Source: Patescibacteria group bacterium (GTDB taxonomy: Bacteria; Patescibacteriota; Patescibacteriia; PEXW01). Taken from it: 64,000 bases of DNA. The position numbers and the translations under genes were made by a program. The DNA is taken from positions 1,714 to 65,713 of the forward strand of contig JBBTVB010000003.1 of NCBI GenBank assembly GCA_038063455.1. The letters are read 5' to 3'. The first letter of the stretch is position 1. The number at the start of each line of letters is the position of its first letter. Shown in pieces: positions 3,081 to 58,729 of this stretch. The notes under the pieces are model-generated. The model was given only the letters and a program-made list of their open reading frames with translations, searched no databases and was not told where the DNA came from.

Positions 3081-3170
3081 GGAAGGGTGGCTGAGTGGTC
3101 GAAAGCGCCGCACTCGAAATGCGGTATACCCGTAAGGGTATCGAGGGTTCGAATCCTTCCCCTTCCGCCA
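3081..3170 (+). tRNA. tRNA-Ser (anticodon CGA), CCA encoded
   Basis: Acceptor GGAAGGG / CCCTTCC, anticodon stem CCGCA / TGCGG with loop CTCGAAA (anticodon CGA). Long variable arm TACCC-GTAA-GGGTA, T-loop GGTTCGAATCC, 3' GCCA. Confidence 0.95.
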
Positions 3171-5759: not shown

Positions 5760-7481
5760 ATGACCCAAGCAACCGCCCTAGCAATTCTCCAAACCGGCGT
5801 GAATGTCTTTCTTACCGGTGAACCGGGCAGCGGCAAAACCCATACGGTAAACAGTTACGTGCGCTGGCTGCGCAGTCACGGCATACCACCCGCGATAACC
5901 GCCTCCACCGGCATTGCGGCCACCCACATTAGCGGGATGACTATCCATTCCTGGTGCGGCATTGGCATAAAAAAATCCCTTTCAACACACGACCTCAACG
6001 CCCTGGCGGCAAACGAACGCGTGGCCCGACGGGTTCGGAACACGAGCGTGCTGATTATTGACGAAGTGTCTATGCTCTCGGCACAGACGCTCGCCATGGC
6101 GGATGCGGTGTGCCGTAAAATCCGGCAGGATACTGCGCCTTTCGGCGGCCTGCAGGTTGTTGTGGTCGGTGACTTTTTCCAATTGCCGCCCGTGGTCCCC
6201 CAGGAAAACCGTGACAGTGCCCAACTCGGCTTTGGCGAAGACGCGGTGGACAGTGCGCCCTTCGCCTTCCGTTCCCCCGCGTGGGACTCCGCCCAGCCGG
6301 TGGTCTGCTATCTCACCGAACAGCACCGCCAGGAAGATGCCGAATTTCTTTCACTTCTTTCGGCTGTACGCTCGGGTACCGCCGATGAAGACACGCACAG
6401 TGCCCTGGCAGCGCGGCGCGCTGATGTAGAACGTACACCGCAAGATCTGCCTCGGCTCTACGCGCACAATGCCGACGTGGACCGCGTGAACGAAACACGC
6501 CTGGCCGCTATTCCTGGCATTGCAAAACACTATACGATGATTTCGCACGGCAAAGAAGGCTTGGTGGCTACGTTACAGCGCGGCTGCCTTTCGCCGGAAA
6601 CCCTCTCACTAAAAGTCGGTGCCCGCGTCATGTTTACCAAGAATAATCCTGACGGCAGTTTTGTAAATGGCACGGTGGGCGAAGTGCAAGGCTTTGGTGA
6701 TGAAGACCAACCGGTAGTACGAACCCTGCGCGGTCGGCGCATAGAAGTGGAGCCAATGGAATGGACGATTACTGACGGCACCCGCACGCTGGCACGCATT
6801 ACGCAGCTCCCCCTCCGGCTTGCCTGGGCAATAACTATTCACAAGAGCCAGGGCATGACCCTGGATGCAGCGGTTATGGACCTTTCGCAGGCCTTTGAGT
6901 ATGGCCAAGGCTACGTTGCGCTCTCGCGAGTGCGCTCGCTCACGGGGCTGCACCTGCTGGGCTGGAACGAGCGCTCACTGGAGGTGCATCCTGAAGTTAT
7001 TGCGCAGGATCAAAATTTTCAACAAAGCTCAATTACGGCGGAAACTACATGTGCCGCTAGGTCAAAAAAAGAACAGGCTGCGCTTGTCCACGCATTTATT
7101 GTAAGCTCCGGTGGCAAACCGGCAGGTGGGGTGGTGATGAGCACCCGGAAAAATACATCCCGCGGCTCAACCTACGATGTGACGCTCGAGCTGGTACACA
7201 GCGGCGCATCTATTCACAAAATTGCCAAAGCCCGTTCGCTCACCGAAGGGACAATTATCTCGCATATGCTCAAGCTCTTTACCGACGGCCGCCTGACCCG
7301 TGCCGAATTAGAACCGCTCATCTCCCCAGCGCTACAAAAGTCGTTACCAAAAATCCAGGCGGTATTTAAAACGCTTGACGTTGAGCACCTCTCACCAATC
7401 TTCGAAAAGTTGGGTGGCGCGTATTCCTATGATGATTTACGCATCGCCCGGGCACTGCTGGAAACAAGCACTCCTGAATAA
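5760..7481 (+). CDS. Pif1/RecD-like ATP-dependent DNA helicase with C-terminal HTH
   Basis: Walker A GEPGSGKTH, Walker B VLIIDEVSML, VVGDFFQLPPV, ITIHKSQG. The C-terminal ~90 aa resembles the helicase-associated HTH (HTH_40-like). Confidence 0.85.
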   Translation: MTQATALAILQTGVNVFLTGEPGSGKTHTVNSYVRWLRSHGIPPAITASTGIAATHISGMTIHSWCGIGIKKSLSTHDLNALAANERVARRVRNTSVLIIDEVSMLSAQTLAMADAVCRKIRQDTAPFGGLQVVVVGDFFQLPPVVPQENRDSAQLGFGEDAVDSAPFAFRSPAWDSAQPVVCYLTEQHRQEDAEFLSLLSAVRSGTADEDTHSALAARRADVERTPQDLPRLYAHNADVDRVNETRLAAIPGIAKHYTMISHGKEGLVATLQRGCLSPETLSLKVGARVMFTKNNPDGSFVNGTVGEVQGFGDEDQPVVRTLRGRRIEVEPMEWTITDGTRTLARITQLPLRLAWAITIHKSQGMTLDAAVMDLSQAFEYGQGYVALSRVRSLTGLHLLGWNERSLEVHPEVIAQDQNFQQSSITAETTCAARSKKEQAALVHAFIVSSGGKPAGGVVMSTRKNTSRGSTYDVTLELVHSGASIHKIAKARSLTEGTIISHMLKLFTDGRLTRAELEPLISPALQKSLPKIQAVFKTLDVEHLSPIFEKLGGAYSYDDLRIARALLETSTPE

Positions 7482-7503: not shown

Positions 7504-8130
7504 ATGGCCATCACCGAATCCATCATCCACATTGCGACGACGTTTATTGAGACTGCCGGCTACCCGGGCATTGGGGTGCTCATGATTATGGAAAGCATGA
7601 TTCTGCCGGTGCCGAGCGAAGCGGTGATGCCGTTTGCTGGTTTCCTCATTTTCGACGGCACGCTTACCTGGGCGGGCGTGATTATTGTCAGCACCATTGG
7701 CAGCATTCTCGGCTCCCTGCTCTCGTACTGGATTGGCGCCAAGGGCGGCCGACCACTGGTGGAACGCTGGGGCAAGTACGTGCTGGTAAGCCACCATGAC
7801 TTGGATATTACGGACCGCTTCTTTGCGCGGCGCGGAAGTTGGGCGGTGCTTATCAGCCGCTTTATTCCGGTTATCCGGCATATCATTTCTATCCCTGCGG
7901 GGGTGGCAAAAATGCCGCTGAAAAAATTTCTGGTCATGACCATTCTCGGTGCCACCCTGTGGAACACCTTCTTAACCTGGGTGGGCTTTAAGCTGGGCGA
8001 GAACTGGGAGAATCTGCACAAGTACAGTGAAAAAATTGATATCGTTATCGTAGCGATCCTCATCCTGCTGGTGGCAGCCTTTGTCTATCGTCACTGGCGC
8101 ACGCGAGACCGCGGGGTGGCCACCGGCTGA
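7504..8130 (+). CDS. DedA/SNARE-associated family membrane protein
   Basis: GYPGIGVLMIMESMILPVPSEAVMPFAGFL and FIPVIRHIISIPAGVAKMPLKKF are typical DedA motifs. Confidence 0.85.
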   Translation: MAITESIIHIATTFIETAGYPGIGVLMIMESMILPVPSEAVMPFAGFLIFDGTLTWAGVIIVSTIGSILGSLLSYWIGAKGGRPLVERWGKYVLVSHHDLDITDRFFARRGSWAVLISRFIPVIRHIISIPAGVAKMPLKKFLVMTILGATLWNTFLTWVGFKLGENWENLHKYSEKIDIVIVAILILLVAAFVYRHWRTRDRGVATG

Positions 8131-8146
8131 CCATTTTTAAAGCCTG

Positions 8147-8155
8147 TGGTATCAT
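8147..8155 (+). promoter_or_regulatory. Extended -10 TGgTATCAT
   Basis: TG 8147-8148, TATCAT 8150-8155. It contains the track start ATG 8154, which argues for the downstream start at 8190. Confidence 0.45.
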
Positions 8156-8189
8156 GTACCACGTCCTTTCTCGTCTTAGAAAAAAATGT

Positions 8190-8555
8190 ATGGCGAAAAA
8201 AATTCACAAAAAAGCATCGGCAAAGCCAGTGGTTGCCACACCAATGAATTGGGGAACGAAGGCATTCTTCCATTCGCTTGGCGTGGTGGCGTACATTAGT
8301 TTTGTTTCTTTCTTGATGTTCAATGCGGAGAGACTCTTTGGGGGAAAACCAGATACCGTCCTGGCACCTGTGGCCTTCTTACTGCTCCTTACCCTCTCGG
8401 CGGCCGTTGTGGGATTGCTGGTCTTGGGCCGACCGATAATGTTGTACCTGGATGGTAAGAAAAAAGAAGCAGTCCATTTTGCGGCAACCACGATTGGATT
8501 TCTATTCGTGGAAGCAGTTTTCATTATAATCATCTTGGCGCTCGCCAACTTGTAG
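8190..8555 (+). CDS. Hypothetical membrane protein
   Basis: Track ORF 8154-8555. Basic N-terminus MAKKIHKKASAK followed by 3 hydrophobic segments. Start 8190 preferred (see -10 box). Confidence 0.6.
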   Translation: MAKKIHKKASAKPVVATPMNWGTKAFFHSLGVVAYISFVSFLMFNAERLFGGKPDTVLAPVAFLLLLTLSAAVVGLLVLGRPIMLYLDGKKKEAVHFAATTIGFLFVEAVFIIIILALANL

Positions 8556-11162: not shown

Positions 11163-11535
11163 CCAACAGCGCAATCCGAACCTCACGGACGAACAGATGA
11201 ATGTTTGCTTCCGCAAAGGCACCGAGCCGCCAGGCAGCGGAAAATTCCTGCACAACGATGCGGCGGGTATGTACGTCTGCGTCAACTGCGGGCAGGAGCT
11301 GTTCAAATCTGACACGAAGTTTGACAGCGGCACCGGCTGGCCCAGTTTTTGGGACCCGACAGCTGGGGCAAATGTAAAGACGCAGGATGACATGGAAATG
11401 GGCGTGCGGCGCGTGGAAGTGCTGTGCAGCCGGTGCGATGCACACCTCGGACATGTGTTTGACGACGGGCCAGAACCGACGGGGAAGCGTTACTGCATAA
11501 ATTCGTTAGCCTTAGACTTTAAACCAAAGAACTAA
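11152..11535 (+). CDS. msrB: Peptide-methionine (R)-S-oxide reductase
   Basis: GxYxCxxCG, SGTGWPSF, CSRCDAHLGHVFDDGP, RYCINS. Confidence 0.95.
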   Translation: MEDNQQRNPNLTDEQMNVCFRKGTEPPGSGKFLHNDAAGMYVCVNCGQELFKSDTKFDSGTGWPSFWDPTAGANVKTQDDMEMGVRRVEVLCSRCDAHLGHVFDDGPEPTGKRYCINSLALDFKPKN

Positions 11536-11540
11536 AAGCG

Positions 11541-11546
11541 TATACT
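11541..11546 (+). promoter_or_regulatory. -10 box TATACT, 9 nt before ATG 11556
   Basis: TATACT 11541-11546, AAGGGTCCT, ATG 11556. Confidence 0.4.
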
Positions 11547-11555
11547 AAGGGTCCT

Positions 11556-12569
11556 ATGCAAGCACTCGTCTTTGAGGGGAAAGGCAAGCTTAACCTGCGC
11601 CACCTGCCGCGGCCAGAAATTGGGCCCAACGAAATATTGATGCGGGTGCGCGCCGTTGGCATTTGCGGTACCGACCTGCACATCTACAATGGCGGCACGC
11701 GAACCAAACCGGGTACGGTTATTGGCCATGAATTTTCTGGCGAGGTGGCTGCCGTTGGCAAAGCGGTAGACAACCTTACCGTTGGTGACCACATAGTGGG
11801 CGAACACGTGGTGGCCTGCAAGCAGTGCCTGTATTGCCGCACAGGGCGGCCCAACCTGTGCAACCGCGCCAGCGTGCTTGGTATAGATCGCAACGGCGCG
11901 CTCGCAGAGTATGTAGCGATTCCGGCGGACTTGGTCTACATCGTCCCCAAAAAAATACCTTTTGAAGAAGCCGCGCTCATTGAACCGCTGTCTATTGCCG
12001 TGTACGCCGCTCGCGAGGTGGGCTTCCTGTTGGAAAAACGGGTCGGCGTCATTGGCCAGGGGCCCATTGGCTTATTCCTGGACCAGGTGATGCATGCGGC
12101 TGGCGCGCAAGTAATCGGCATCGACACGCTCGACCACCGACTACGCTTTGCCAAAAAGCAGGGCTGGGTTGACTACACAATCAATCCAAAAACGGATGAC
12201 GTGCAGCGCTCGGTCGATGCTATTACCAAGCACGGCTTGGATATTGCCTTTGAAGCAGTGGGGAAGGAGCAAACCATGGACCTGGCGCTCCAAGTAGTGC
12301 GGCGCGGCGCGAAGGTGCTGGTATTGGGGGTGTTCGAGACGCCTGCCAAAATTGACATGATGCAAGTGGTGAAGAAGGAACTCTCGCTCGTGGGTTCGTG
12401 GACCTGCGCGCACGCCTTCCCAGCCAGTATCCGCCTAGTGGAAGAAGAGAAAGTGGAGCTGGGCAAACTCATTACACACCGATACCTCTTTACAGAGGCG
12501 GCTCGAGCATTTGCCGAAGCGTCCACCTACAACGAGAACCGCATCAAAAGCGTGATCACGTTTGAGTAA
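11556..12569 (+). CDS. Zn-dependent medium-chain dehydrogenase (sorbitol/threonine dehydrogenase-like)
   Basis: GICGTDLHIY, GHEFSGEV, CxxCxxCxxG structural-Zn motif (CKQCLYCRTGRPNLC), Rossmann GVIGQGPIG. Confidence 0.9.
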   Translation: MQALVFEGKGKLNLRHLPRPEIGPNEILMRVRAVGICGTDLHIYNGGTRTKPGTVIGHEFSGEVAAVGKAVDNLTVGDHIVGEHVVACKQCLYCRTGRPNLCNRASVLGIDRNGALAEYVAIPADLVYIVPKKIPFEEAALIEPLSIAVYAAREVGFLLEKRVGVIGQGPIGLFLDQVMHAAGAQVIGIDTLDHRLRFAKKQGWVDYTINPKTDDVQRSVDAITKHGLDIAFEAVGKEQTMDLALQVVRRGAKVLVLGVFETPAKIDMMQVVKKELSLVGSWTCAHAFPASIRLVEEEKVELGKLITHRYLFTEAARAFAEASTYNENRIKSVITFE

Positions 12570-32637: not shown

Positions 32638-33912
32638 TTATTTTTTATTTGCGTTAACCGCACGCAATGCATACAAGTACATCCCGGCAGACCACGCTTG
32701 GCGTGGCATACCCAAGGGCTTTTTCGTTTTGCCGTGGAACCATTCATTAAATTCCCAAGCTTCTTTTTTACCCAGGCGATTGGCTTTGGCTAAGGCGAGG
32801 AGCGCAGTCTTTGCATCGGCACGACGGCCGACTTTCACCAGTGCCGCAACGTATAACCCGCCCAAGTACGGCCAGTAGCCGCCGTTGTGGTACTGGTCAG
32901 GTAAATTGAGTTTATTGAGCGTGTAGTAATGCTGCCAGTCTTTCATCCCCGGCTTGCGTGCTGGCCAAGTGGCTTTGATGGCAAACGGCTGAGCAAGTTT
33001 ATGCTTCTCAATAAATGTAACGATCGTCTGGGCTTGAGCCGAAGTAGCGGCGCCGGTAATGATGGCCAGTAAATTTCCCAAGCTATCAAACCACTCACCG
33101 AAGTTAAGGAAAGTAATATAGGGCAGGAAAAAGGAATTGGCGCTCATGAACTTTGCGTCCTGGATAAACTGCTTGCGACCATGGCCCCGGATCTGCCTGC
33201 GCCGCTCCGGGCCCTTGCTGCCAAAGCTATCTTGGATTATTTGGAATACGTCGCGGCTGGGCGTGTACCAAAAGCGGTCGCGGATCATCGCCTGCAACTG
33301 CCGCGCTTGCGCTGTCCACTCCTTAGCGAGACTGGGTTTGCTGAATTTCTTCGCCAAGCCACCGGCGGTGCGGAGCGCGTGGGCATATAAAACATTGACG
33401 GTCAGGCCTTTGCCGCGGACGCCAAAAATATCTTCCCAGTCTGCAGCTTCATCCATAGTTATGAACCCGCTTCGGTCCGGCGACTGGGTTGCGTACCAGG
33501 CCAACACGCGCTGGAGGTTCGGGAAGATTTTCCGGACAAAGGCCCAGTCTTTGGTCTGCCGGCCGTAGGCGGCGGCACCGATAACAAACCACAGGCCACC
33601 GTCGGCATACGCGCGGAACGTGGCCTTGCCCGTCACCGTATCCACGTAATTCGGAATTTGGCCCAGCGGTGCCTGGAAACGGACAAGGGTGTGCAGGCTT
33701 TGGCGGAATGCGCGGCGCAGTTTGGCATCGGCAAATGGCAAAGTGCCGAGCAGCGTGATCATGCTATCCCGCGCCCACACCTTCTTATACAACGCGGAAC
33801 TGGCCGAGGCCTGGATACCGAGCGGGTGGATGCAGCGCCGAAGCACCTCGAGCGCGTGACGTTTGGCTTCGGCAAGAAATTGGTCAGCGGCAGGAAGAGT
33901 GGAATGAGACAT
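32638..33912 (-). CDS. (alpha/alpha)6 glycoside hydrolase, GDE_C / GH100 neutral-invertase-like
   Basis: Track ORF 32638-34068 overlaps the divergent GT4 by 110 nt. Start moved to ATG 33912 (MSHSTLPAADQF). VWARDSMITLLG, GQIPNYVD, DGGLWFVIGAAAY, ADWEDIFGVRGKGLTVNVLYAHAL. Confidence 0.65.
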   Translation of the reverse strand: MSHSTLPAADQFLAEAKRHALEVLRRCIHPLGIQASASSALYKKVWARDSMITLLGTLPFADAKLRRAFRQSLHTLVRFQAPLGQIPNYVDTVTGKATFRAYADGGLWFVIGAAAYGRQTKDWAFVRKIFPNLQRVLAWYATQSPDRSGFITMDEAADWEDIFGVRGKGLTVNVLYAHALRTAGGLAKKFSKPSLAKEWTAQARQLQAMIRDRFWYTPSRDVFQIIQDSFGSKGPERRRQIRGHGRKQFIQDAKFMSANSFFLPYITFLNFGEWFDSLGNLLAIITGAATSAQAQTIVTFIEKHKLAQPFAIKATWPARKPGMKDWQHYYTLNKLNLPDQYHNGGYWPYLGGLYVAALVKVGRRADAKTALLALAKANRLGKKEAWEFNEWFHGKTKKPLGMPRQAWSAGMYLYALRAVNANKK

Positions 33913-33920
33913 GTGAGTAC

Positions 33921-33928
33921 AGTATACT
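33921..33928. promoter_or_regulatory. Palindromic AGTATACT giving a TATACT -10 box on both strands
   Basis: Plus-strand TATACT 33923-33928 (ATG 33959, 30 nt downstream). Minus-strand TATACT from 33921-33926 (ATG 33912, 8 nt downstream). Confidence 0.45.
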
Positions 33929-33958
33929 ACCAGCATCTCACCTTGGGACACCAACTGT

Positions 33959-35008
33959 ATGAAGAAGCTCCGCATTGCCCAACTCGTGCCGTTTGAAGAA
34001 ACCGTGCCGCCCACCAAGTACGGCGGGACGGAACTCGTCGCCTCCAACTTGTCCGACGGCTTGGTCAAGCAAGGCTACGATGTCACGCTCTTCTCCGTGG
34101 GCGGCTCCAAAACCACGGCCAAGCTGGTCAAAGTCTTTCCTGGTCCCCTACGCGCCCATACCGGTTCGGAACTCAAAGCGCGAGAAGCTCTTAAATTTAT
34201 GGGCGTGGGCAAGGTGCTGACCGCGGTGGTGAAAGGCAAATTTGACGTCGTACACAACCACATTGGCTGGCGCGTGCTACCGTTCTTAGAAATTATCCCG
34301 GCCCCGACGGTAACCACCTTGCACGGCCCGCTCGACATTGCGTACCAGCGCATGGTGTACAAACCGTTTGCCCGCACGCCGTTTGTTTCGATCTCCAACA
34401 ACCAACGCAAGCCGCTCAAGCTCAACTATGCGGCCACGGTGTACAACGGCATCCGCGTGGACCGCTTCGACTACTTAGAAAAGAAAGATGATTACCTGGC
34501 CTTCCTCGGCCGGATGAGCCCGGAGAAGGGGCCGGTGCAGGCAATCCAGGTGGCAAAAAAAACCAAGCGCCGTTTAATTATGGCCGCCAAGGTCGACCAA
34601 GTCGACATAAAATTTTTTAACGAGAAGGTGAAGCCGCTCATCGATGGCAAGCAAATCAAATTTCTTGGCGAAGTCGGCCACGAAGGGAAATCGAAGCTGC
34701 TGGCCCATGCGGCCGGGCTGCTGGCGCTTATCCAGTGGGAAGAGCCGTTTGGCTTGTTCATGGCCGAAGCCAACGCTTGCGGCACGCCGGTTATCGCCAT
34801 GGCTCGCGGTGCTGCGCCAGAAGTCATTGCGCACAAGAAGACTGGCTACCTGGTGCATTCCACTGCGGAAGCTGCCAGCATGGTGAGTAAACTCGGCATG
34901 ATCAAACCCAAGGACTGCCGGACGCGCGCCCAAGCGCACTTCTCGGTGGAAGCCATGGTGGCGGGCTACGTGAAGGTGTACGAAAGACTCATCCGCCAGT
35001 GGCGCTGA
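33959..35008 (+). CDS. GT4 glycosyltransferase, paralogue 1 of 3
   Basis: VPPTKYGGTELV, YLAFLGRMSPEKGPVQAIQ, WEEPFGLFMAEANACGTPVIA. Confidence 0.8.
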   Translation: MKKLRIAQLVPFEETVPPTKYGGTELVASNLSDGLVKQGYDVTLFSVGGSKTTAKLVKVFPGPLRAHTGSELKAREALKFMGVGKVLTAVVKGKFDVVHNHIGWRVLPFLEIIPAPTVTTLHGPLDIAYQRMVYKPFARTPFVSISNNQRKPLKLNYAATVYNGIRVDRFDYLEKKDDYLAFLGRMSPEKGPVQAIQVAKKTKRRLIMAAKVDQVDIKFFNEKVKPLIDGKQIKFLGEVGHEGKSKLLAHAAGLLALIQWEEPFGLFMAEANACGTPVIAMARGAAPEVIAHKKTGYLVHSTAEAASMVSKLGMIKPKDCRTRAQAHFSVEAMVAGYVKVYERLIRQWR

Positions 35009-35121
35009 GTCCCGCTTAAACTCGTCATGTCACACGCGTTGCAATTATCTTGTGGGACGAAACCCCGCACCGGAGCCACACAGCAGTGTGACGACTGGTG
35101 CGCGGGTAACCACCTAAAACT

Positions 35122-36105
35122 ATGACCCGAGCGGCCTTGCTCAAACACGTCCGCTCCCTCCTAGCCAAGCGCGGACTCACGCCGGACGCTGACGTCAAAG
35201 AAATCCTCAACCACCAGCGGCGGTTTTTCCGCACGCGCTGCATCGATGCGAAAGGCAAGCAGTACACCTTTAAAGTGTACCTCCTTACCGTCCCCACCAC
35301 GCGCCACGACTTCCAGCACGAAATTGCCTTCTACCATTTTGCCGCCCAAGGCCGACTAACGCAATTTCCCCGCTGGATAGCGGGTGAACGCAATCGCGCC
35401 CATCCCTGGATTCTCTACACCTACATCCCCGGCGTACCGTTTACTACCTACCTCCGCCGCAAACGGAACCATGTGCCGCCACGGCTGCTGAACACGCTCG
35501 CGCGCGTGCTCGCGCACTACACCCACCTCCGCATTCCCGAGCCCACCCGACGCCTGCTCCACCTCCACGCCCATCGAGCCAGCGATTTTAGCAAACGTTT
35601 CACCCAGTACACGCGCGGCCGCAACCGCAAAATGATCCTGCAGCACCTGACGGAAACCGAGCTGGAGGCTGCCGCCCGGATTATTGCTTTCCACCAAACC
35701 GAGAAGCGCTTGCCACGCCAGCTGGGGCTGAGCCACGGCGACTTGAGTACGGCCAACTTGCTGGTGGATGGCGAGAGCTTTGCAGTGCTGGACTGGGAGC
35801 ACATTCAAATTGCCTCCCCCGCCTACGACATTGCCGAACTGTGGGTCAAAGAATTCAGCCGCGCGCCCTGGCGCAACAAGCTGGCGCTGCAGGTGGGCGC
35901 GCTGCAACCGCAGCCGGAACTCTTCGGCGCCCTCTTTAGTATCGAAGTCCTACTCTTCTGCCTGCGGGATATTCTTTTGCACGACCGGATCGTGCACGAA
36001 CTCAAGCATCGCCGGAGCAAAGCAATTATTCGGCGAGTGCTCAGCTACTACAGCCGCACCTTCCGCGCCGCGCTCCGCGGTTTTCCAGTTCTGCTAAAAA
36101 CCTAA
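35122..36105 (+). CDS. APH-fold (aminoglycoside phosphotransferase/choline-kinase family) small-molecule kinase
   Basis: Catalytic loop LSHGDLSTANLLVD and DWEHIQIASPAYDIAELW (HGDxxxxN ... DWE). Confidence 0.7.
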   Translation: MTRAALLKHVRSLLAKRGLTPDADVKEILNHQRRFFRTRCIDAKGKQYTFKVYLLTVPTTRHDFQHEIAFYHFAAQGRLTQFPRWIAGERNRAHPWILYTYIPGVPFTTYLRRKRNHVPPRLLNTLARVLAHYTHLRIPEPTRRLLHLHAHRASDFSKRFTQYTRGRNRKMILQHLTETELEAAARIIAFHQTEKRLPRQLGLSHGDLSTANLLVDGESFAVLDWEHIQIASPAYDIAELWVKEFSRAPWRNKLALQVGALQPQPELFGALFSIEVLLFCLRDILLHDRIVHELKHRRSKAIIRRVLSYYSRTFRAALRGFPVLLKT

Positions 36106-36108
36106 CCT

Positions 36109-37161
36109 ATGAAAAGACTCCGCATTGCCCTGGTTGCGCCGCTGGCCGAGCGCGTCCCGCCCCGCAAGTACGGTGGCACCGAACTGGTCATTGGCAACTT
36201 GGCCAACGGTCTAGTAGCGCGCGGCCACAAGGTAACGCTGCTGGCCCGCTCGGATTCCAAAACCAAAGCCAAGCTCGTCTCCTTCTACCATCCCGACCCG
36301 CGGGCCCGCTCCCGCTACGCTTCTCGTGGCTACATGGTGCCCAACTACTGGCAGACCTTGGAGTTGGGTTGGGCTTTTGAACGGGCTAGGCAATTTGACG
36401 TGATGCACTTTCACATTGGCTCGACCTTCTTCCCCTACACCCGGCTAGTACAAACGCCGTGCGTACTCACGCTGCACGGCCGCTTGAATACCACAGAAGC
36501 AAAAAAGGTGCACACGGCGTACAAAGAGGTGCCCCTGGTTTCCATCTCGAACAACCAGCGCACGCCCATCCCGAAACTCAACTTCATTCGGACAGTGTAC
36601 AACGGCATTGATATGGCGGCGCATCGCATGGGTACGGGCAAGGGGAATTACCTCGCTTTCCTGGGCCGCATGAGCCCGGAGAAAGGGCCGGTGCAGGCTA
36701 TCCAGGCCGCCAAGCGCGCTGGGATGAAACTCGTGATGGCTGCCAAGGTAGATACCGTTGACGCTGGCTACTTTACCAAAAAGGTGAAGCCGTTCATCGA
36801 TGGCAAGCAAATTCGATTTATCGGCGAAGTTGACCACGCGGGCAAAGTAAAACTCCTCCAGGGTGCCGTTGGTCTGCTTGCGCTCATCCAGTGGGAAGAG
36901 CCCTTCGGCTTGTTCATGACCGAGGCCATGGCCAGCGGCACACCGGTTATTGCCACCCATCGCGGCTCGGTGCCAGAAATTGTCGCGGATGGCAAAACCG
37001 GCTTTGTGGTGGGTGACGTGACCGACGCCGTTCGGGCCATTAAAAGTCTGCACACCATCAACCGCCAAGCCTGCCGTGCGCGCGTGGAAAAATACTTTTC
37101 CATCGAGGCAATGGTCAACGGGTACGAAGCTGTGTACGCTAAGCTTACGCACAAAAGATGA
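36109..37161 (+). CDS. GT4 glycosyltransferase, paralogue 2 of 3
   Basis: VPPRKYGGTELV, YLAFLGRMSPEKGPVQAIQ, WEEPFGLFMTEAMASGTPVIA. Confidence 0.8.
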   Translation: MKRLRIALVAPLAERVPPRKYGGTELVIGNLANGLVARGHKVTLLARSDSKTKAKLVSFYHPDPRARSRYASRGYMVPNYWQTLELGWAFERARQFDVMHFHIGSTFFPYTRLVQTPCVLTLHGRLNTTEAKKVHTAYKEVPLVSISNNQRTPIPKLNFIRTVYNGIDMAAHRMGTGKGNYLAFLGRMSPEKGPVQAIQAAKRAGMKLVMAAKVDTVDAGYFTKKVKPFIDGKQIRFIGEVDHAGKVKLLQGAVGLLALIQWEEPFGLFMTEAMASGTPVIATHRGSVPEIVADGKTGFVVGDVTDAVRAIKSLHTINRQACRARVEKYFSIEAMVNGYEAVYAKLTHKR

Positions 37162-38186
37162 AACCCAAAATCGCCATTCTCGCCTCCAACCTCTACCCCA
37201 TCCCGCCGCAGCGTACGTCGGCGGCCGAACTTATTGTGTCAGAAATTACCGAGGGGTTAGTAAGGCGCGGTTTCCCGGTGACGCTCTACGCCGCAGGGGA
37301 CACCAAAACTCGCGCACGCTTGGTAAGCGTGACAAAACGCGCATCCATTCGCGATCCCAAAATCGGCCAGCCAAACCACAAAGCCTACGAATTTATGCTG
37401 GCTAGCCGAGCCTACAAAGATGCCCAAACCTGGGGCGCAAAAATTATACTCTCGCATATTCCCATGGTGAGCGCACACTTTGCCGCGTTTGCAAAGTTCC
37501 CCACCGTTGCCCTGCTGCACAGCCCGCCCACGCCGACGGATGCCGCAGTCATGGCCAGCGCGCCGAACCAAAAGTACATCTCCATCTCTAACAACCAACG
37601 CAAAACCGCAGCCGGTTCAAAGTTTGTTACTACCATCTACCACGGCGTCAACACGAAACAGCTAAAATTCCAAGCGCAACCAGGCAACTACCTAGCCTTC
37701 CTGGGGCGCATCCGCGAGTACAAAGGGGTAAAGGAAGCAATTGCGGTTTCCGGCGCAACGAAAATCCCGCTGCGCATTGCCGGCCCCATCGGCGACCCGG
37801 CGTACTTTGCAAAATTCGTGAAGCCAGCGCTGTCAAAAACCATTCGCTACGTCGGTGAAATTACCCATAGCCAAAAGTCTGCATTCCTCGGCGGCGCGCT
37901 GGCCACACTCTTCCCCATTGGTTGGGAAGAGCCGTTTGGTTTGGTTATCCCCGAATCCCTGGCCTGCGGCACGCCGGTGATTGCCTTCAAGCGCGGCTCG
38001 GTGCCTGAACTGCTGCGGGACAAAAAGACGGGCTACATTGTAAAAACCGTCCCACAGATGATTACCGCGGTACAAAAAATTGAACACATCAAACGTTCTG
38101 CCTGCCGCGCGGAAGCCGTGCGCCGCTTCTCGCTCGACCGGATGGTGGATGACTACGCAACGCTACTGACCAAACTCGCGAGGTAA
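37158..38186 (+). CDS. GT4 glycosyltransferase, paralogue 3 of 3 (more divergent)
   Basis: YLAFLGRIREYKG, WEEPFGLVIPESLACGTPVIA. ATGA overlap with paralogue 2. Confidence 0.8.
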   Translation: MKPKIAILASNLYPIPPQRTSAAELIVSEITEGLVRRGFPVTLYAAGDTKTRARLVSVTKRASIRDPKIGQPNHKAYEFMLASRAYKDAQTWGAKIILSHIPMVSAHFAAFAKFPTVALLHSPPTPTDAAVMASAPNQKYISISNNQRKTAAGSKFVTTIYHGVNTKQLKFQAQPGNYLAFLGRIREYKGVKEAIAVSGATKIPLRIAGPIGDPAYFAKFVKPALSKTIRYVGEITHSQKSAFLGGALATLFPIGWEEPFGLVIPESLACGTPVIAFKRGSVPELLRDKKTGYIVKTVPQMITAVQKIEHIKRSACRAEAVRRFSLDRMVDDYATLLTKLAR

Positions 38187-38188
38187 CT

Positions 38189-39103
38189 ATGCAAGGCTCC
38201 GAACTCCGCATTGACCCCATCCACGACCGCGCGGTTATTGTGGCGCCCAAACGCGGCGCTCGTCCGCACGACATTCCAGAAGAAACCCTCAGTGTGGTCC
38301 CGCGCGATTGCCCATTTTGCCTAGAGGCACTCAAGAAGAAGGGCATTGTCCATACCAGCGGCAAAGGCGCCACTGCCATTCGGGTTATTAAGAATGGGTT
38401 CCCTGCCGTGTCGCTGGATAACCCCAAAGCCCACGGCTACCAAGAAGTGCTTATCGAGACGCCCGCCCACAGCGTGGAGCTGGCCGAGCTCCCGGTACAA
38501 AAAATTGACCACTTGCTGCACGTCTACCAGCACCGCACCCGAGCCATAGCCAAGAAACGCGGCATCGAGTACATTCTCATTTTTAAGAACCACGGCGGCA
38601 AAGCCGGGGCCAGCCTGGTGCACGCCCACTCGCAAATTTTTGCAACCGGGTTTGTGCCGCCGCATATCATTCAAAAGCTCACCAATGTCCGCGCGTACAG
38701 CATTGCAAAGGGCCACTGCTACTACTGCGACACGCTGGCCAAAGAACAGCGCGGCCCGCGGCGCATTCTGGCCAACAAACATGTCGTGGCCTTTGCCCCC
38801 TACGTCTCGGCCTACCCATACGAGGCGTGGATCTTCCCGCGTCGCCACGTCGACAACCTGACGCGCCTTTCGCATGCAGAACGACGCGCCTTTGCCGTGG
38901 CCATGCGCACCATCTTGGGCAAGCTCAATGGCATTAACGTGCCGTACAACTACTACCTGCACCAAACCCTTACGGACAAAGACGAACACTTCTACCTGCG
39001 CATTGCCCCCCGCCAATCAACCTGGGGTGGGCTGGAAGTCGGCTCGCGGCTAATTATCAACCAAGTCGCGCCCGAGGATGCGGCAAAGTTTTATCGGAAG
39101 TAA
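38189..39103 (+). CDS. GalT-type hexose-1-phosphate nucleotidyltransferase (HIT superfamily)
   Basis: CPFC Zn motif, FKNHGGKAGASLVHAHSQIFA (HxHxQ). A second half-domain follows. Confidence 0.75.
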   Translation: MQGSELRIDPIHDRAVIVAPKRGARPHDIPEETLSVVPRDCPFCLEALKKKGIVHTSGKGATAIRVIKNGFPAVSLDNPKAHGYQEVLIETPAHSVELAELPVQKIDHLLHVYQHRTRAIAKKRGIEYILIFKNHGGKAGASLVHAHSQIFATGFVPPHIIQKLTNVRAYSIAKGHCYYCDTLAKEQRGPRRILANKHVVAFAPYVSAYPYEAWIFPRRHVDNLTRLSHAERRAFAVAMRTILGKLNGINVPYNYYLHQTLTDKDEHFYLRIAPRQSTWGGLEVGSRLIINQVAPEDAAKFYRK

Positions 39104-39119
39104 CTGCTACCTAAGTGAA

Positions 39120-40184
39120 CTATATGAGGATACGTCCCTGCTTACCTGTCGGGCGCGCTCTTTGAATCATAAACTCAACGTTCTCGTTCATATTAGTCGG
39201 GTCGATTCTAATGTCTGTATGATGGTTTTGCCATACTCGAAAAATCTCATCGGCAAAAGCTTGGCCAATGGTGTCTACTCCCGAAAAGTCCAACTCAACA
39301 ACTTTAAAATTCTCCAAATTCATGGTTACTCGTTTTGCCTCAGATCGAGAAGGTAAGTCGCGGCCAAATTGAAAGAGCTTTACAGTCACGCGCGTCTTGT
39401 CAAACAAATATTCATCCTCTCCGTTCCCCGTAAAAGCATTAAATATACCTCTAAGATCTCGCTGGGATGTGAGATGAATACTAAAACTTACGCGCGTACC
39501 CCTAAGCGATTTTCGATCAGAAATGAATATGTCAGGCAATAAGTTATTCACCGTCAACCGTTTCTCATAACTATCAATAACGAACACATCGCCCATTTTT
39601 GAAGTAAAAAATACTCCTTCGCCTGTGTGCTGTTTTGGGTCCGTAGTCGCTTTACCTTTTAAAATTTCCTGAATGGCAGCAAGTGTCCCCGGTAAACGAA
39701 ATTTGTCACGAACATTATTAAAAATACCGATACCAAAATCACGAACGACAAAAGTTATGGCTGTATCTGTTTTGCGGCAATCAATCTCAATACGCCCCGA
39801 TTGTGAATGATCAATGGCGTTATTAACCATTTCGGTAAAACCATGACGAATAATTTTATGAATATTTTCTTTCGCATCCAAAAAGATGCCCGTTTCTTGC
39901 TCGATTCTTTTAAATACTGTGTCTTCATCAAGATTAGCATTTTTTAGACGAAAAAATATATGACGAATTGCCCGTTTTACGTTACGAACGGCTGTCGTGT
40001 CTGAGGCTAAAACGTACCTAGCTTGATTGGACTTCCCAATGAGAAGTACCGTTCCCTCTTCGCGGAGCTCTTGTAAAAGAAGGTGTGCGTAGTTCCTACT
40101 GACGCTTAAGTCATCACCAATTTGGCGGGTGGTAACCGACCCCTTCTTATGTAGTACAGATAAAATATGGTCTTTTGATTGCAT
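39120..40184 (-). CDS. wHTH - GHKL ATPase (HATPase_c) - STAS-like (DUF4325) protein, low-GC
   Basis: N-terminal winged-helix-like ILSVLHKKGSVTTRQIGDDLSVSRNYAHLLLQEL. N-box MVNNAIDHS, G1 VRDFGIGI, GEGVFF. C-terminal VELDFSGVDTIGQAFADEIFRVW. Visibly AT-richer than both neighbours. Confidence 0.6.
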   Translation of the reverse strand: MQSKDHILSVLHKKGSVTTRQIGDDLSVSRNYAHLLLQELREEGTVLLIGKSNQARYVLASDTTAVRNVKRAIRHIFFRLKNANLDEDTVFKRIEQETGIFLDAKENIHKIIRHGFTEMVNNAIDHSQSGRIEIDCRKTDTAITFVVRDFGIGIFNNVRDKFRLPGTLAAIQEILKGKATTDPKQHTGEGVFFTSKMGDVFVIDSYEKRLTVNNLLPDIFISDRKSLRGTRVSFSIHLTSQRDLRGIFNAFTGNGEDEYLFDKTRVTVKLFQFGRDLPSRSEAKRVTMNLENFKVVELDFSGVDTIGQAFADEIFRVWQNHHTDIRIDPTNMNENVEFMIQRARPTGKQGRILI

Positions 40185-40205
40185 AATAATTTACTTTACA
40201 ACTCT

Positions 40206-40234
40206 ATTATAGAGTAAAGTATAAAAGTTGTCAA
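40206..40234 (-). promoter_or_regulatory. Consensus promoter TTGACA-17-TATAAT with overlapping inverted repeat
   Basis: Minus strand: TTGACA from 40229-40234, TATAAT from 40206-40211. Imperfect inverted repeat TACTTTAC-AA-CTCTAT (40192-40207) / ATAGAG-TAAAGTA (40209-40221) spans the -10 box. Confidence 0.7.
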
Positions 40235-40295
40235 CTAGTCATACTATATATTCACCTTCGGGTTAAATACATACAAATAACTGAATACTTGTGAG

Positions 40296-40304
40296 TGCTA
40301 TCAT
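40296..40304 (+). promoter_or_regulatory. Extended -10 TGcTATCAT, 6 nt before ATG 40311 (leaderless-type)
   Basis: TG 40296-40297, TATCAT 40299-40304, GTACCT, ATG 40311. Confidence 0.5.
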
Positions 40305-40310
40305 GTACCT

Positions 40311-42173
40311 ATGCCCCAGTTGGAACCCAACCTCTGGATCGAAGGCGGCTATTACATCGACTTCGACCAGCTCGACCAGTTTCGCATCCTCGGCCCCAAC
40401 AACCACTTGTACTGTGGGTTTATTGACGCGCCGCGGCACCGGCTGGCCATTGATAAACTGGAAACCACGCCGGAGCAGAAGCTGGTGGTCACGGGCCGGT
40501 TCCTGAAGTCCACCTTCAACCTCTACAACCCGGTCATGGGCGATATGCGCACGATGCGCGGCTTAGTAGTGGAAGAGCAGACGAACAAGCTGGTTACCTT
40601 TTTAGAACTCCGCAAGCGCGAGACCAGCCAGTCCGTACCCATGTGGATCCACCGCAGCCAAGGCCGGGACGGCAAGGCGCTGCTTTTCCGGCGCTCGTAC
40701 GGCGACAAGTGGTACGGCACCACCTTCCACTTCCCTACCTGGGTCAACATCACGGCCATCCAGCGGCCGTTCGGCGGGTTCAAGCTGGAGGCGCGCGGCA
40801 AGAAGCACATTCCCTTCACTATTACCGCCGACACCAACGACCTCACCGAGCGCACGTACCGCAGCTCGGTAATGCCGGACGAAGCTATTGAGTGGAAAAC
40901 CTTTGGTAAAGAAGCGGCGGTCATAAAAAAGTTCTGGCAGCGGTCAAAGATTGAAGCCGACCACCTGATTACCTGGGGCAAAACCTCGGGCGACCGGTTT
41001 GGCACAGTCTTCCCGCGGGACTGGATGGAATCCGTACTCCTCGGCGCGGGCGACATCCCCTCCGAGACGATCGATGCCATGATTATCCAGTGCTTGGCAA
41101 ACGTGGATGGCCGTGGCCGCATGTGGCACGAGGACGTCGTGGGCGAGTACCGCTACCGCCACCAACTCTCTGGGCGGGATTTGTTCGACCGCAAAATGAT
41201 TGATATTGAGCCGCTGGTGATTCTGGCCTTGCGCTACACCTCGGCAAACTTTTGGACCAACACCGACGCGCTGACCAAGCTGCGCCGGATGGCAAAATAC
41301 GTAGTGGCCAACGCCCACAAGAAGCACTGGATTGCCTTCAAGCGCAAACCCAAATCTCATCAAACTGCCGATGAGCAATACTACCTGGTGGGCAACTGGC
41401 GGGACAGCACCTGGGCCTTTAAAAAAGTGCACCCCCACCTAGCGCCGTTTGACGTGAATGCTGTGCTTTACCCCGAAGCACTACGCGAGCTCCAGCTGCT
41501 GAGTAGTAAATTGCAATTGACCAATGCCGCCGCGCTGGCGACGCTCCGGAAACGTTGGGACAAGCAGAGCGAGCACTTTGCAATAACCAACCCGGATACA
41601 TTGCCTGCCTACGCCCTGGCCGTGTACGGCATGAACAGCAACGTGTACAGCGCGGGCCGCAAGGTAAAGTTCCAACAATATAAAGTGAACCACCTGGACG
41701 AGTGCTATCGCTACGCGCTCAGCGAAGGCACAGAAACCGAACTCGCCAGCTACTGCAAGCGCCTGGCCGACAAAAAGTACTTCTGGACCGCCAGCGGCCC
41801 TTTGCTGGTCGCGGCCAACAACAGCATGGGCTACACCTCGCAGGAGTACCATGGCCTGGTTATCTGGACCAAGCAGGTGGCCTTTGCGCTACTGGGCCTA
41901 ACGCGCCATTTGGAACAAGCCAAAAGCCGCACGTGGAGCCTGAGCACGCAAAAACTCTTGCGTGCCACGGCGCTCGACATCTGCCGCCGAATGGTTAGCA
42001 CGTTTGCCAAACTCAATGCGATTCCGGAGCTGCACTTTGACGACCGCAACACCCCACGGCTGTTCACCGACCAGCAAGCCACGGGCGAGCACATGAGCAA
42101 GGTACAGCTGTGGTCAGCAATCGGCGCGCGTCGGATTTTCCGCGAGTACTACAAGCTGCTGAAGCAAAAATAG
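40311..42173 (+). CDS. Large uncharacterised protein, C-terminal part GDE_C-like (alpha/alpha)6 glycosidase fold
   Basis: 620 aa. GTVFPRDWMESVLLG, GRGRMWHEDVVGEY and MIDIEPLVILALRY resemble the FGRD / G-IPHE / VDATPL pattern of amylo-alpha-1,6-glucosidase-type domains. The N-terminal ~200 aa are unrecognised. Confidence 0.4.
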   Translation: MPQLEPNLWIEGGYYIDFDQLDQFRILGPNNHLYCGFIDAPRHRLAIDKLETTPEQKLVVTGRFLKSTFNLYNPVMGDMRTMRGLVVEEQTNKLVTFLELRKRETSQSVPMWIHRSQGRDGKALLFRRSYGDKWYGTTFHFPTWVNITAIQRPFGGFKLEARGKKHIPFTITADTNDLTERTYRSSVMPDEAIEWKTFGKEAAVIKKFWQRSKIEADHLITWGKTSGDRFGTVFPRDWMESVLLGAGDIPSETIDAMIIQCLANVDGRGRMWHEDVVGEYRYRHQLSGRDLFDRKMIDIEPLVILALRYTSANFWTNTDALTKLRRMAKYVVANAHKKHWIAFKRKPKSHQTADEQYYLVGNWRDSTWAFKKVHPHLAPFDVNAVLYPEALRELQLLSSKLQLTNAAALATLRKRWDKQSEHFAITNPDTLPAYALAVYGMNSNVYSAGRKVKFQQYKVNHLDECYRYALSEGTETELASYCKRLADKKYFWTASGPLLVAANNSMGYTSQEYHGLVIWTKQVAFALLGLTRHLEQAKSRTWSLSTQKLLRATALDICRRMVSTFAKLNAIPELHFDDRNTPRLFTDQQATGEHMSKVQLWSAIGARRIFREYYKLLKQK

Positions 42174-44978: not shown

Positions 44979-45347
44979 GTGTACGTTTGTATTATTATTG
45001 TACAAAAGGAATTGCGCGAGCAACTGCACCAGGTCGTGAAAAAGAATTTTCCAAACAGCACTCACCCTGCGTTTGCTAACTTGACTGCCCTTGAGGATGT
45101 TCGTTTCAAGAAACAGCTGCTGCAAGTAGACCTAGCCATCGTCCACACCGCCGATGCCTCTAGAAATCTTGGTATCTACATAAGTAGAATTCAATCAACG
45201 ACGGGCTGCGGCAAGGTACTGCTCATGCGCCGGCCAAATGAATCAATGGAGCTGCACGAGTCTAGCTGCGGCGTTGTTACTTTGGTCGAGCCACTCAATG
45301 AGAGCTTGCTTGCTGTTAAGGTGGGGTATGTGTTAGCACTTCCGTAA
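44979..45347 (+). CDS. Hypothetical protein (122 aa), possibly a degenerate receiver-like fold
   Basis: SD AAGGAGG (44967-44973) before GTG 44979. AT-richer. No confident family. Confidence 0.5.
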   Translation: MYVCIIIVQKELREQLHQVVKKNFPNSTHPAFANLTALEDVRFKKQLLQVDLAIVHTADASRNLGIYISRIQSTTGCGKVLLMRRPNESMELHESSCGVVTLVEPLNESLLAVKVGYVLALP

Positions 45348-58025: not shown

Positions 58026-58111
58026 AATCCATTCTTTGAAAAATGCCCAAACATGGGACCGACCCTTACCGGATGTGAGGAAAAAAACAAAGCGAAAGGA
58101 GGGTGATAACA

Positions 58112-58729
58112 ATGGGCGCATTGATTACACCCGGACAGGAAAAACAACTGCGACGAATGCTAGTGGATGCAGTGGAAAATGGCGTAACGGAAGCCATTGA
58201 AAGTATCCCATTGGACCACTACATGGCGCAGACATTTCTGGAACAAGGAGACATGCTAACGAAAGCGTTGCTGAGCGATCTGCTAAAGCACGCCAAGCTG
58301 CTTGCGATGACGAGCAAGCATCGTGTCGATCTGAATGTTGATCCCATTGTGCCTGAGGGGTATACAGTAAAAGTACATCGCAAAGGTGGTATTTTTTACT
58401 ACGACAAGGAAAGGGTTGCGATCTACTATGCACCTGTACAAGCAATAGGCCGATCGGTTGGCGGCGCGGTATTTCTTGAAGCGTTCGCTGGTAAGGAGCC
58501 ATTTAATGCATGCCTCTTCGACTATTTGCTCTTGCATCCTGAGTTACCACGACCTATTGGACTCAACCTAGTGTTCTTGGGGACAGTGTTTCTAGACAAA
58601 TGGCGGAAAGAACATGTTCGTTTTTTACGCGTTGACCAATATGCATACGTGCATTATGGGATGCTACCATTCGATTTCAATTTTTTACATGATTGCCCAG
58701 CACTCATAAAAAAAGCATCGCCACATTGA
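58112..58729 (+). CDS. Hypothetical protein (205 aa)
   Basis: SD AAAGGAGGG (58095-58103) before ATG 58112 (the track starts at GTG 58103). AT-richer. No family recognised. Confidence 0.55.
   Translation: MGALITPGQEKQLRRMLVDAVENGVTEAIESIPLDHYMAQTFLEQGDMLTKALLSDLLKHAKLLAMTSKHRVDLNVDPIVPEGYTVKVHRKGGIFYYDKERVAIYYAPVQAIGRSVGGAVFLEAFAGKEPFNACLFDYLLLHPELPRPIGLNLVFLGTVFLDKWRKEHVRFLRVDQYAYVHYGMLPFDFNFLHDCPALIKKASPH

Follow-up and report, generated by a model that had tools for sequence, protein, structure and literature searches.

The 64,000-nucleotide (nt) stretch of Patescibacteria DNA analyzed here, referred to below as the window, contains at 39120-40184 a minus-strand gene whose 354-amino-acid (aa) product joins a winged helix-turn-helix (wHTH), a GHKL-type ATP-binding domain and a STAS-like domain of the Pfam family DUF4325. 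This gene, called the regulator gene in the following, lies ~5 kb away from dnaN and dnaA and is convergent with a GalT-like gene. A first-pass annotation had put forward the open reading frame (ORF) together with a set of sequence motifs, all of which were found in the product, and had described the gene as AT-richer than its flanks. Base composition and codon statistics agree with that description: the ORF has a GC content of 0.41 compared with 0.57-0.60 in the flanks and coincides with the lowest-GC 1065-nt stretch in 64 kb, ~4 standard deviations under the mean, and its GC content at third codon positions (GC3; 0.373 vs 0.66-0.78 in neighbor genes) ranks lowest among the 44 window ORFs of at least 150 aa (z = -3.45). 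The gene and the elements upstream of it are as follows.

39120-40184, minus strand: coding sequence of the wHTH–GHKL ATP-binding–STAS-like (DUF4325) protein, 354 aa (ORF list, Pfam, >7300 homologues of the same architecture, AlphaFold2 model with a predicted local distance difference test score, pLDDT, of 81.5)
40206-40234, minus strand: sigma-70-type promoter TTGACA-17-TATAAT, with the -35 at 40229-40234 and the -10 at 40206-40211
40225-40235, minus strand: candidate upstream operator half-site GTTGACAACTT, containing the -35 (family consensus site)
40194-40204, minus strand: candidate downstream operator half-site, inverted, reading GAGTTGTAAAG on the gene strand and CTTTACAACTC on the complement (conservation and covariation)
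40192-40221, minus strand: inverted repeat TACTTTAC / GTAAAGTA marked at first pass (repeat search)

The promoter, described at first pass as perfect, matches the consensus at 12 of 12 positions and is the sole such site in the region. The exact half-site GTTGACAACTT occurs once in the 64-kb window, in the regulator gene's own promoter, and its inverted counterpart lies between the -10 and the start codon, where it is conserved as AAGTTGTCAAC in L020, L021, L004 (further loci with homologues) and most metagenome loci. The repeat at 40192-40221, in which the -10 is embedded, had originally been described as consistent with autoregulation. That repeat exists, with 8-nt arms (40192-40199 / 40214-40221) of 100% complementarity, but it is specific to the window, being weak or absent in L020 and L021, and overlaps the downstream operator half-site only, through its promoter-distal arm. 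The pair that is conserved in homologues is 40225-40235/40194-40204. The proposal of autoregulation itself gains strong comparative evidence, although through another, wider repeat than the one first marked.

The same layout recurs upstream of homologues whose genomic contexts are mutually unrelated, the promoter-operator architecture being kept regardless. One or two direct copies of GTT(G/T)ACAAsTT, the last of which contains the -35, are followed by the -10, an inverted copy and then 10-25 nt before the start codon; a more distant subgroup of homologues has four direct GTTkACAAT copies instead. Among 82 distinct upstream regions, an inverted repeat matching at 10 or more of 11 positions was present in 51% (2.4% of shuffles) and a perfect one in 20% (0.1% of shuffles). 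Operator sites reach a density of 12.1 per kb within 120 nt upstream, compared with 0.084 per kb elsewhere (572 kb), a ~140-fold enrichment. In a core-anchored test, in which half-sites were anchored on the invariant core only and the variable tails compared, tail complementarity within loci exceeded all 5000 permutations, and at the one truly variable position seven of eight left-arm minority bases are mirrored on the right arm. Half-site spacing is 35 nt in 29 of 38 loci, and natural specificity variants of the operator occur (ACAACT/AGTTGT vs ACAAGT/ACTTGT). These comparisons show a conserved, covarying putative operator that travels with the gene, which we regard as the main new result.

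A search for extra operator sites that might constitute a regulon in the 64-kb window found none above chance. Because a second full promoter-operator unit directly follows the stop codon in five other loci (L088, L095, L096, L098 and L116), the regulator probably also controls an adjacent gene in some lineages. The genes that this unit faces are, in L098 (7021-8629; the unit is likewise found in L088, L095 and L096), a small ORF and those of an EcsC-family protein and a bPH_2 membrane protein, and in L116 (4641-5371) that of a PEMT/ICMT-like methyltransferase. A sigma-54 activator is also encoded in L098, whose host is for this reason probably not a Patescibacterium.

The first-pass annotation had further suggested that the gene was acquired separately from its neighbors. 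Six syntenic relatives keep a backbone of two glycosyltransferase genes and the GalT-like gene on one side and a 620-aa gene, PBP1A and dnaN on the other, which allowed the site to be delimited by junction alignments:

39104-40293: variable cargo, from the GalT-like stop codon to the core promoter of the 620-aa gene (junction alignments vs L012, L013, L009 and L011)
40294-40310, plus strand: conserved core AGTGCTATCATGTACCT immediately upstream of the ATG of the 620-aa gene (kept in each of the five syntenic genomes regardless of cargo)

In L012 and L013 the gap between the GalT-like gene and the 620-aa gene measures only 63 and 96 nt, respectively, with no regulator. At the same site L009 carries 2.5 kb with a Bro-N protein and an AbiEi/AbiEii pair (L009:5698-7974), and L011 an AbiEi-like/AbiEii pair directly upstream of the 620-aa gene (L011:251-1541). 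The core, which reads AGTGCTATCATGTACCyATG across syntenic relatives, belongs to the host backbone rather than to the cargo, as judged from these alignments, and since it is kept in all relatives, the cargo of the window is taken to extend from 39104 to ~40293. Separate acquisition is borne out by the site being empty or filled with other cargo in syntenic relatives and by the extreme GC3 contrast. The junctions show that the regulator gene does not belong natively to the sugar cluster but is accessory cargo at a variable site.

A single recent insertion does not cover the whole history of the site, as L021 carries the gene at the same position with highly diverged flanks. Both L020 and L021, whose regulators are 94% and 80% identical in aa sequence to that of the window, have the gene at the same right-hand junction, and the L021 flanks (69-72% aa identity to the window flanks) are as diverged as those of the empty-site genomes. 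Nucleotide identity of the gene compared with the flank is 77.3 vs 76.6% for L021 and 87.3 vs 89.6% for L020, and regulator GC3 stays at 0.37-0.42 in all three hosts (window, L020, L021) against a host GC3 of 0.58-0.84. Either the gene is an old resident of the site that some lineages lost or replaced, or homologous recombination via the conserved flanks would have exchanged it. In L020 (1424-2450), the closest relative, homology to the window breaks ~30 nt before the regulator stop codon, and a high-GC 200-aa ORF without Pfam match follows the regulator, replacing the GalT-like gene; this left junction appears to be a further rearrangement or further cargo. The locus can be viewed as a small near-origin chromosomal hotspot that swaps toxin–antitoxin and regulatory cargo among uncultured bacteria.

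The protein itself divides into three domains, and a single codon in the third of them bears on its mode of action:

40005-40184, minus strand: wHTH DNA-binding domain, residues 1-60 (borderline FaeA match, HTH_24, HTH_11 and MarR matches of homologues, model fold)
39465-39869, minus strand: GHKL (Bergerat) ATP-binding domain of the anti-sigma-kinase type, residues 106-240 (Pfam, invariant columns, fold matches)
39150-39401, minus strand: STAS-like domain (DUF4325), residues 262-345 (Pfam, 3e-16; domain-only AlphaFold2 model)
39261-39263, minus strand: codon of Gln308, first residue of helix α2, at the SpoIIAA/CapS/VapS acceptor position (LDF+8 spacing, family alignment, both models)

Pfam confirms the DUF4325 and HATPase parts of the architecture read from the sequence at first pass, the wHTH itself being borderline. 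Its FaeA match falls just below threshold (20.5 vs 20.7 bits), the corresponding region of homologues matches HTH_24, HTH_11 and MarR, and the model has an H-H-H-β-β fold for which Foldseek returned MarR and S25e winged helices. With this fold and the conserved, covarying upstream sites, the protein has the attributes of a winged-helix transcription factor. The GHKL domain matches HATPase_c_2 at 31.9 bits (cut-off 27.4, E 1.6e-7) and HATPase_c at 31.3 bits (cut-off 26.4, E 3e-7). Its motifs comprise an N-box (E118/N122), a G1 box (D149-G151-G153) and a lid/G2 region (K176-G-K...H186-G188-G190), with E118, N121, N122, D149, G151, G153, G188 and G190 invariant or nearly so among 24 sequences. 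The ATP-binding motifs are all intact and ATP binding is predicted. In the full-length model (pLDDT 81.5, predicted template modeling score 0.67), the best PDB folds for this domain are SpoIIAB structures (1til, 1l0o and 1th8; TM-score ~0.7, E 2e-5); the top six Foldseek matches are all SpoIIAB chains (E 2e-5 to 6e-4), with DesK, Hsp90 and MutL behind.

The C-terminal domain matches DUF4325 at 59.2 bits (cut-off 23, E 3e-16). Modeled alone (pLDDT 81.8), it folds nearest to RsbS, the stressosome STAS, the prestin/SULTR STAS and SpoIIAA (TM-score 0.5-0.6, Foldseek E ~1e-2), which lends moderate support to a predicted STAS fold. Neither the full protein nor the C-terminal profile has a significant sequence match in the PDB, VapS being touched at E 0.58. 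In SpoIIAA (S58), CapS (S54) and VapS (S48), the acceptor serine stands eight residues past the LDF/LNL strand, in the first turn of α2. The LDF+8 position of the window protein is Q308, with α2 beginning at 308 in both the full-length and the domain-only model, and the family has Gln there in 123 of 124 members and Arg in the remaining one. Thr305 was also considered as phospho-acceptor; the spacing rule gives Q308, and Thr305 is not conserved, being Glu in many prophage members. Given this near-invariant Gln at the acceptor position, the fused STAS-like domain cannot, on the family alignment, be regarded as a canonical kinase substrate. The same substitution speaks against the earlier suggestion of a partner-switching-type regulator, as does the lack of a conserved partner nearby: neither a sigma factor nor a PP2C phosphatase gene is conserved in the vicinity across ~85 loci, and the window has neither near the gene.

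In L007, a HTH_17/MerR-like gene and a stand-alone 96-aa DUF4325 gene are paired (11210-12242, minus strand) ~2 kb from a regulator homologue. The stand-alone protein (11210-11500) belongs to the same Pfam family as the C-terminal domain of the window protein and differs from it in being a separate small protein, likewise uncharacterized, in which the acceptor region retains Ser-Pro, as in VapS. It may act as a distinct substrate of the CapS/VapS type.

More than 7300 relatives of the same length and architecture were retrieved, mostly annotated in Patescibacteria as 'DUF4325 domain-containing protein', and exhaustive searching gave 648 clusters at 50% identity (E <=1e-30). Identity across classes of the Candidate Phyla Radiation (CPR) is 45-50% at uniform length. 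Homologues do not always sit in the same sugar operon, the neighborhood check proposed at first pass: no neighbor or partner gene is conserved among ~85 loci, and the largest neighbor cluster, among CPR-type loci, spans three loci. Proximity to tig or the origin was considered as a family trait and dismissed, as it holds in L015, L017 and the window but, over all loci, in no more than 3 of 85. IMG/VR viral or prophage contigs contribute another 47, more distant members (30-45% identity), with the caveat that the prophage boundaries may take in host DNA; these members adjoin an integrase, a CI/S24-type repressor or terS/terL (just upstream), or follow tail genes. The prophage homologue in L039 has its own terminator, and control of the terminase genes by this homologue was rejected, given no shared operator words and the terminator after the gene. 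A search of PADLOC-DB v2 gave no defense match, just two chance-level hits in the wHTH region (E 0.02-0.03), tblastn found no match in the GenBank phage collection, and the window protein has no recognizable effector domain. In the literature, DUF4325 appears in three papers only, always in passing, and HATPase in two defense-discovery papers refers to unrelated systems.

GHKL-kinase and STAS modules were tied to the transcriptional control of bacterial immune operons only in 2026 (PMC13373217). CapK (HTH–STAS–GHKL) is a kinase activated by single-stranded DNA (ssDNA) (Chambers et al., EMBO J 2026, PMC13373217), with an ssDNA-binding groove formed by its own non-phosphorylatable STAS and its GHKL domain. 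CapS (STAS–wHTH), a dimer, represses both its own promoter and a downstream immune operon; phosphorylation of S54 breaks the dimer and releases DNA, and its target promoter contains a 'wide palindrome' bracketing the -10 (PMC13373217). The function of the architecture described here had been called not established at first pass, which still holds for the family of the window protein, although the analogous CapK/CapS pair has been characterized (PMC13373217).

CapK/CapS is the closest characterized system as judged from domain content and promoter layout. The same domain types (HTH or wHTH, anti-sigma-type GHKL and STAS) are present in the window protein, self-repression via palindromic sites bracketing promoter elements is predicted for it, both systems occur in mobile or immune contexts, and CapK's own STAS lacks the acceptor Ser, having Asn at equivalent spacing where the window protein has Gln. 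The differences are as pronounced. CapK and CapS are two proteins (HTH–STAS–GHKL and STAS–wHTH), whereas the window has one polypeptide (wHTH–GHKL–STAS), no second STAS or wHTH gene near the regulator gene and no phosphorylatable STAS joined to a DNA-binding domain. Alignment with hhalign against CapK/CapS gave a probability of <=3% over 34 HTH columns only, and that against SpoIIAA was not significant; neither CapK nor CapS matches Pfam DUF4325. The known system has TTAA half-sites, the window family 11-nt GTTkACAAsTT arms ~23 nt apart, and no immune operon lies downstream in the window, the genes facing the downstream units of homologues (EcsC, bPH, PEMT-like) not being known immune genes. 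The window protein is not filed as a member of the CapK or CapS family, because it is a single permuted polypeptide, hhalign was not significant, CapK/CapS have no DUF4325 and an immune operon is lacking.

Two further comparisons can be drawn. With SpoIIAB–SpoIIAA and RsbW–RsbV, the protein shares a GHKL core nearest to SpoIIAB and a C-terminal domain with the SpoIIAA/RsbS STAS fold. It differs from them in fusing both domains in cis to a wHTH, in having a near-invariant Gln (123/124) for the acceptor Ser, and in lacking a sigma target or PP2C phosphatase, the predicted output being direct DNA binding instead of sigma sequestration. VapKSC is a toxin–antitoxin system in which a GHKL+STAS kinase works with a small STAS partner (PMC13373217). 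Of STAS proteins, the C-terminal profile reaches VapS (PDB 9z7o) alone, weakly and without significance (E 0.58), and the motif hxLDFsxV....[S/Q]xF is common to both; the window system, in contrast, has no PIN toxin and no separate STAS antitoxin.

Taken together, we lean, by a modest degree, toward the regulator being a one-component transcription switch under its own control, encoded by a cassette in which promoter, operator and gene move together. The wHTH, presumably dimeric, would bind two GTT(G/T)ACAAsTT half-sites, as we infer from the comparative data. With the first of these overlapping the -35 and the second, inverted, lying between the -10 and the start, binding would repress the gene's own strong promoter. 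The SpoIIAB-like GHKL domain and the in-cis STAS-like domain with Gln at the acceptor position would form an ATP-dependent sensor that relieves repression, a signal changing oligomerization or DNA affinity and thereby de-repressing the promoter. By analogy with CapK, and by analogy only, this signal could be ssDNA or DNA damage, or a nucleotide state. The output would be the regulator alone in the window, and additionally the adjacent gene in lineages with a second operator unit.

Several points weigh against this model. The proposed link between operator and protein is one of co-occurrence alone, and with self-regulation as the only visible output in the window, the selective benefit is unexplained. 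The protein has no detectable sequence homology to CapK/CapS, so that the idea of an ssDNA signal is an analogy. Start codons of the fetched metagenome loci were assigned by our own script. Finally, TTGACA is the -35 consensus as well, and site conservation could partly reflect promoter strength, although in the loci compared promoter strength cannot account for the inverted copy after the -10 or for the covarying tail.

The position of the gene, between the GalT-like gene and the conserved 620-aa gene and beside three GT4 genes, might instead point to a native regulator of the flanking sugar and glycosyltransferase cluster. This explanation is effectively refuted by the cluster remaining intact where the site is empty (L012, L013) or holds other cargo (L009, L011), by homologues in unrelated contexts, by the lack of any other operator site in the window, and by the conservation of the core promoter of the 620-aa gene irrespective of cargo. 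A stand-alone anti-phage or superinfection-immunity factor deserves more weight, although we judge it unlikely. Such a protein would sense infection and itself be the effector, phosphorylating host or phage proteins or binding TTGACA promoters of incoming DNA, with autoregulation keeping its level poised. AbiEi/AbiEii and the Bro-N gene at the same chromosomal site in relatives, distant homologues at accessory prophage positions with their own promoter and terminator, a patchy distribution, foreign composition and the immune association of the related GHKL+STAS modules CapKS and VapKSC (PMC13373217) all fit this explanation. It is at odds with the negative PADLOC and GenBank phage searches, with the missing effector domain and with a very high conservation (45-50% identity across CPR classes, uniform length) that is unusual for arms-race genes. 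Moreover, the gene is stable among housekeeping genes beside tig in some Uhrbacteria-type genomes, and the prophage contexts carry the caveat that IMG/VR boundaries can take in host DNA.

GHKL ATPases commonly dimerize upon ATP binding. Together with two to four sites at fixed spacing and with MutL and Hsp90 among the weaker fold matches, this would suit an ATP-driven DNA clamp or looping protein (as MORC, MutL or GyrB), in which GHKL dimerization joins two wHTH-bound sites and acts in topology or silencing, not in signal-responsive repression. We hold such a clamp to be improbable, given that the best folds are the small kinase-type SpoIIAB and DesK catalytic domains and not MORC/MutL/GyrB, that no S5-fold transducer domain follows the GHKL domain and that the sites are restricted to the gene's own promoter. 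A similarly low likelihood is assigned to a partner switch fused in cis, in which the SpoIIAB-like kinase would phosphorylate the STAS-like domain, either within one polypeptide or across the dimer, and so toggle DNA binding. The SpoIIAB-like core, the C-terminal STAS fold and the precedent of CapS, whose dimer dissociates and leaves the DNA once the STAS serine is phosphorylated (PMC13373217), would be in line with it. The acceptor position (LDF+8, first α2 residue) is nevertheless Gln in 123/124 members, Thr305, which precedes it by three residues, lacks conservation, with Glu in many prophage members, and no PP2C-type phosphatase or sigma factor is conserved nearby.

The autoregulated one-component switch can be extended, tentatively and with distinctly less confidence, to the family as a whole. 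The family may be a single-chain, domain-permuted counterpart of CapK/CapS in Patescibacteria, other bacteria and prophages, in which the pseudo-substrate STAS (Gln) and the GHKL domain sense a stress signal (ssDNA or nucleotide state) and gate the fused wHTH repressor, forming a portable inducible promoter cassette with which mobile elements could control themselves or adjacent cargo. If true, the same parts would have been collapsed into one protein without a phospho-acceptor, which implies that switching works by another chemistry. With hundreds of 50%-identity clusters, the family is large; it is entirely uncharacterized and among the few recognizable regulators in small Patescibacteria genomes. 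Its operator, with 11-nt half-sites, fixed spacing and natural specificity variants, offers an experimental handle and could serve as a compact regulatory part.

Among the neighboring genes, the 620-aa gene (40311-42173, plus strand) has no Pfam, NCBIfam or PDB sequence match. Its product is conserved (70-86% aa identity), and the gene is syntenic with PBP1A and dnaN in relatives. The label 'GDE-like' given to it at first pass found no supporting match, and the GDE_C match belongs to another gene (32638-34068); its designation as leaderless is plausible, the conserved TATCAT at 40299-40304, 6 nt before the ATG, fitting a leaderless mRNA. The sugar cluster (32638-39103) comprises a GH100/GDE_C-like hydrolase, three paralogous GT4 glycosyltransferases, an APH-type kinase and a GalT/HIT-like uridylyltransferase, and a sucrose-phosphate-phosphatase-like gene is found just past it (annotated in L001); the cluster may represent a compatible-solute or storage-sugar pathway. 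Between PBP1A and dnaN, a 122-aa ORF (44979-45347, plus strand) without Pfam match lies in a patch of GC ~0.47-0.49, its only match being a weak one of 29% in L010. The PBP1A–dnaN gap is variable among relatives and may be a second variable spot.

Further lower-GC patches occur in the window at 3487-4986 (minus strand), 5760-7481, 7504-8555 and 58103-58729 (all plus strand). One of them encodes a 499-aa protein in which sigma-70 regions 3 and 4 are split by an unusually long insert; others encode a PIF1-type helicase with a C-terminal HTH_40 and a VTT-domain membrane protein, and two lower-GC ORFs have no Pfam match (8154-8555 and 58103-58729, GC3 0.447). A tRNA-Ser(CGA) is located at 3081-3170.

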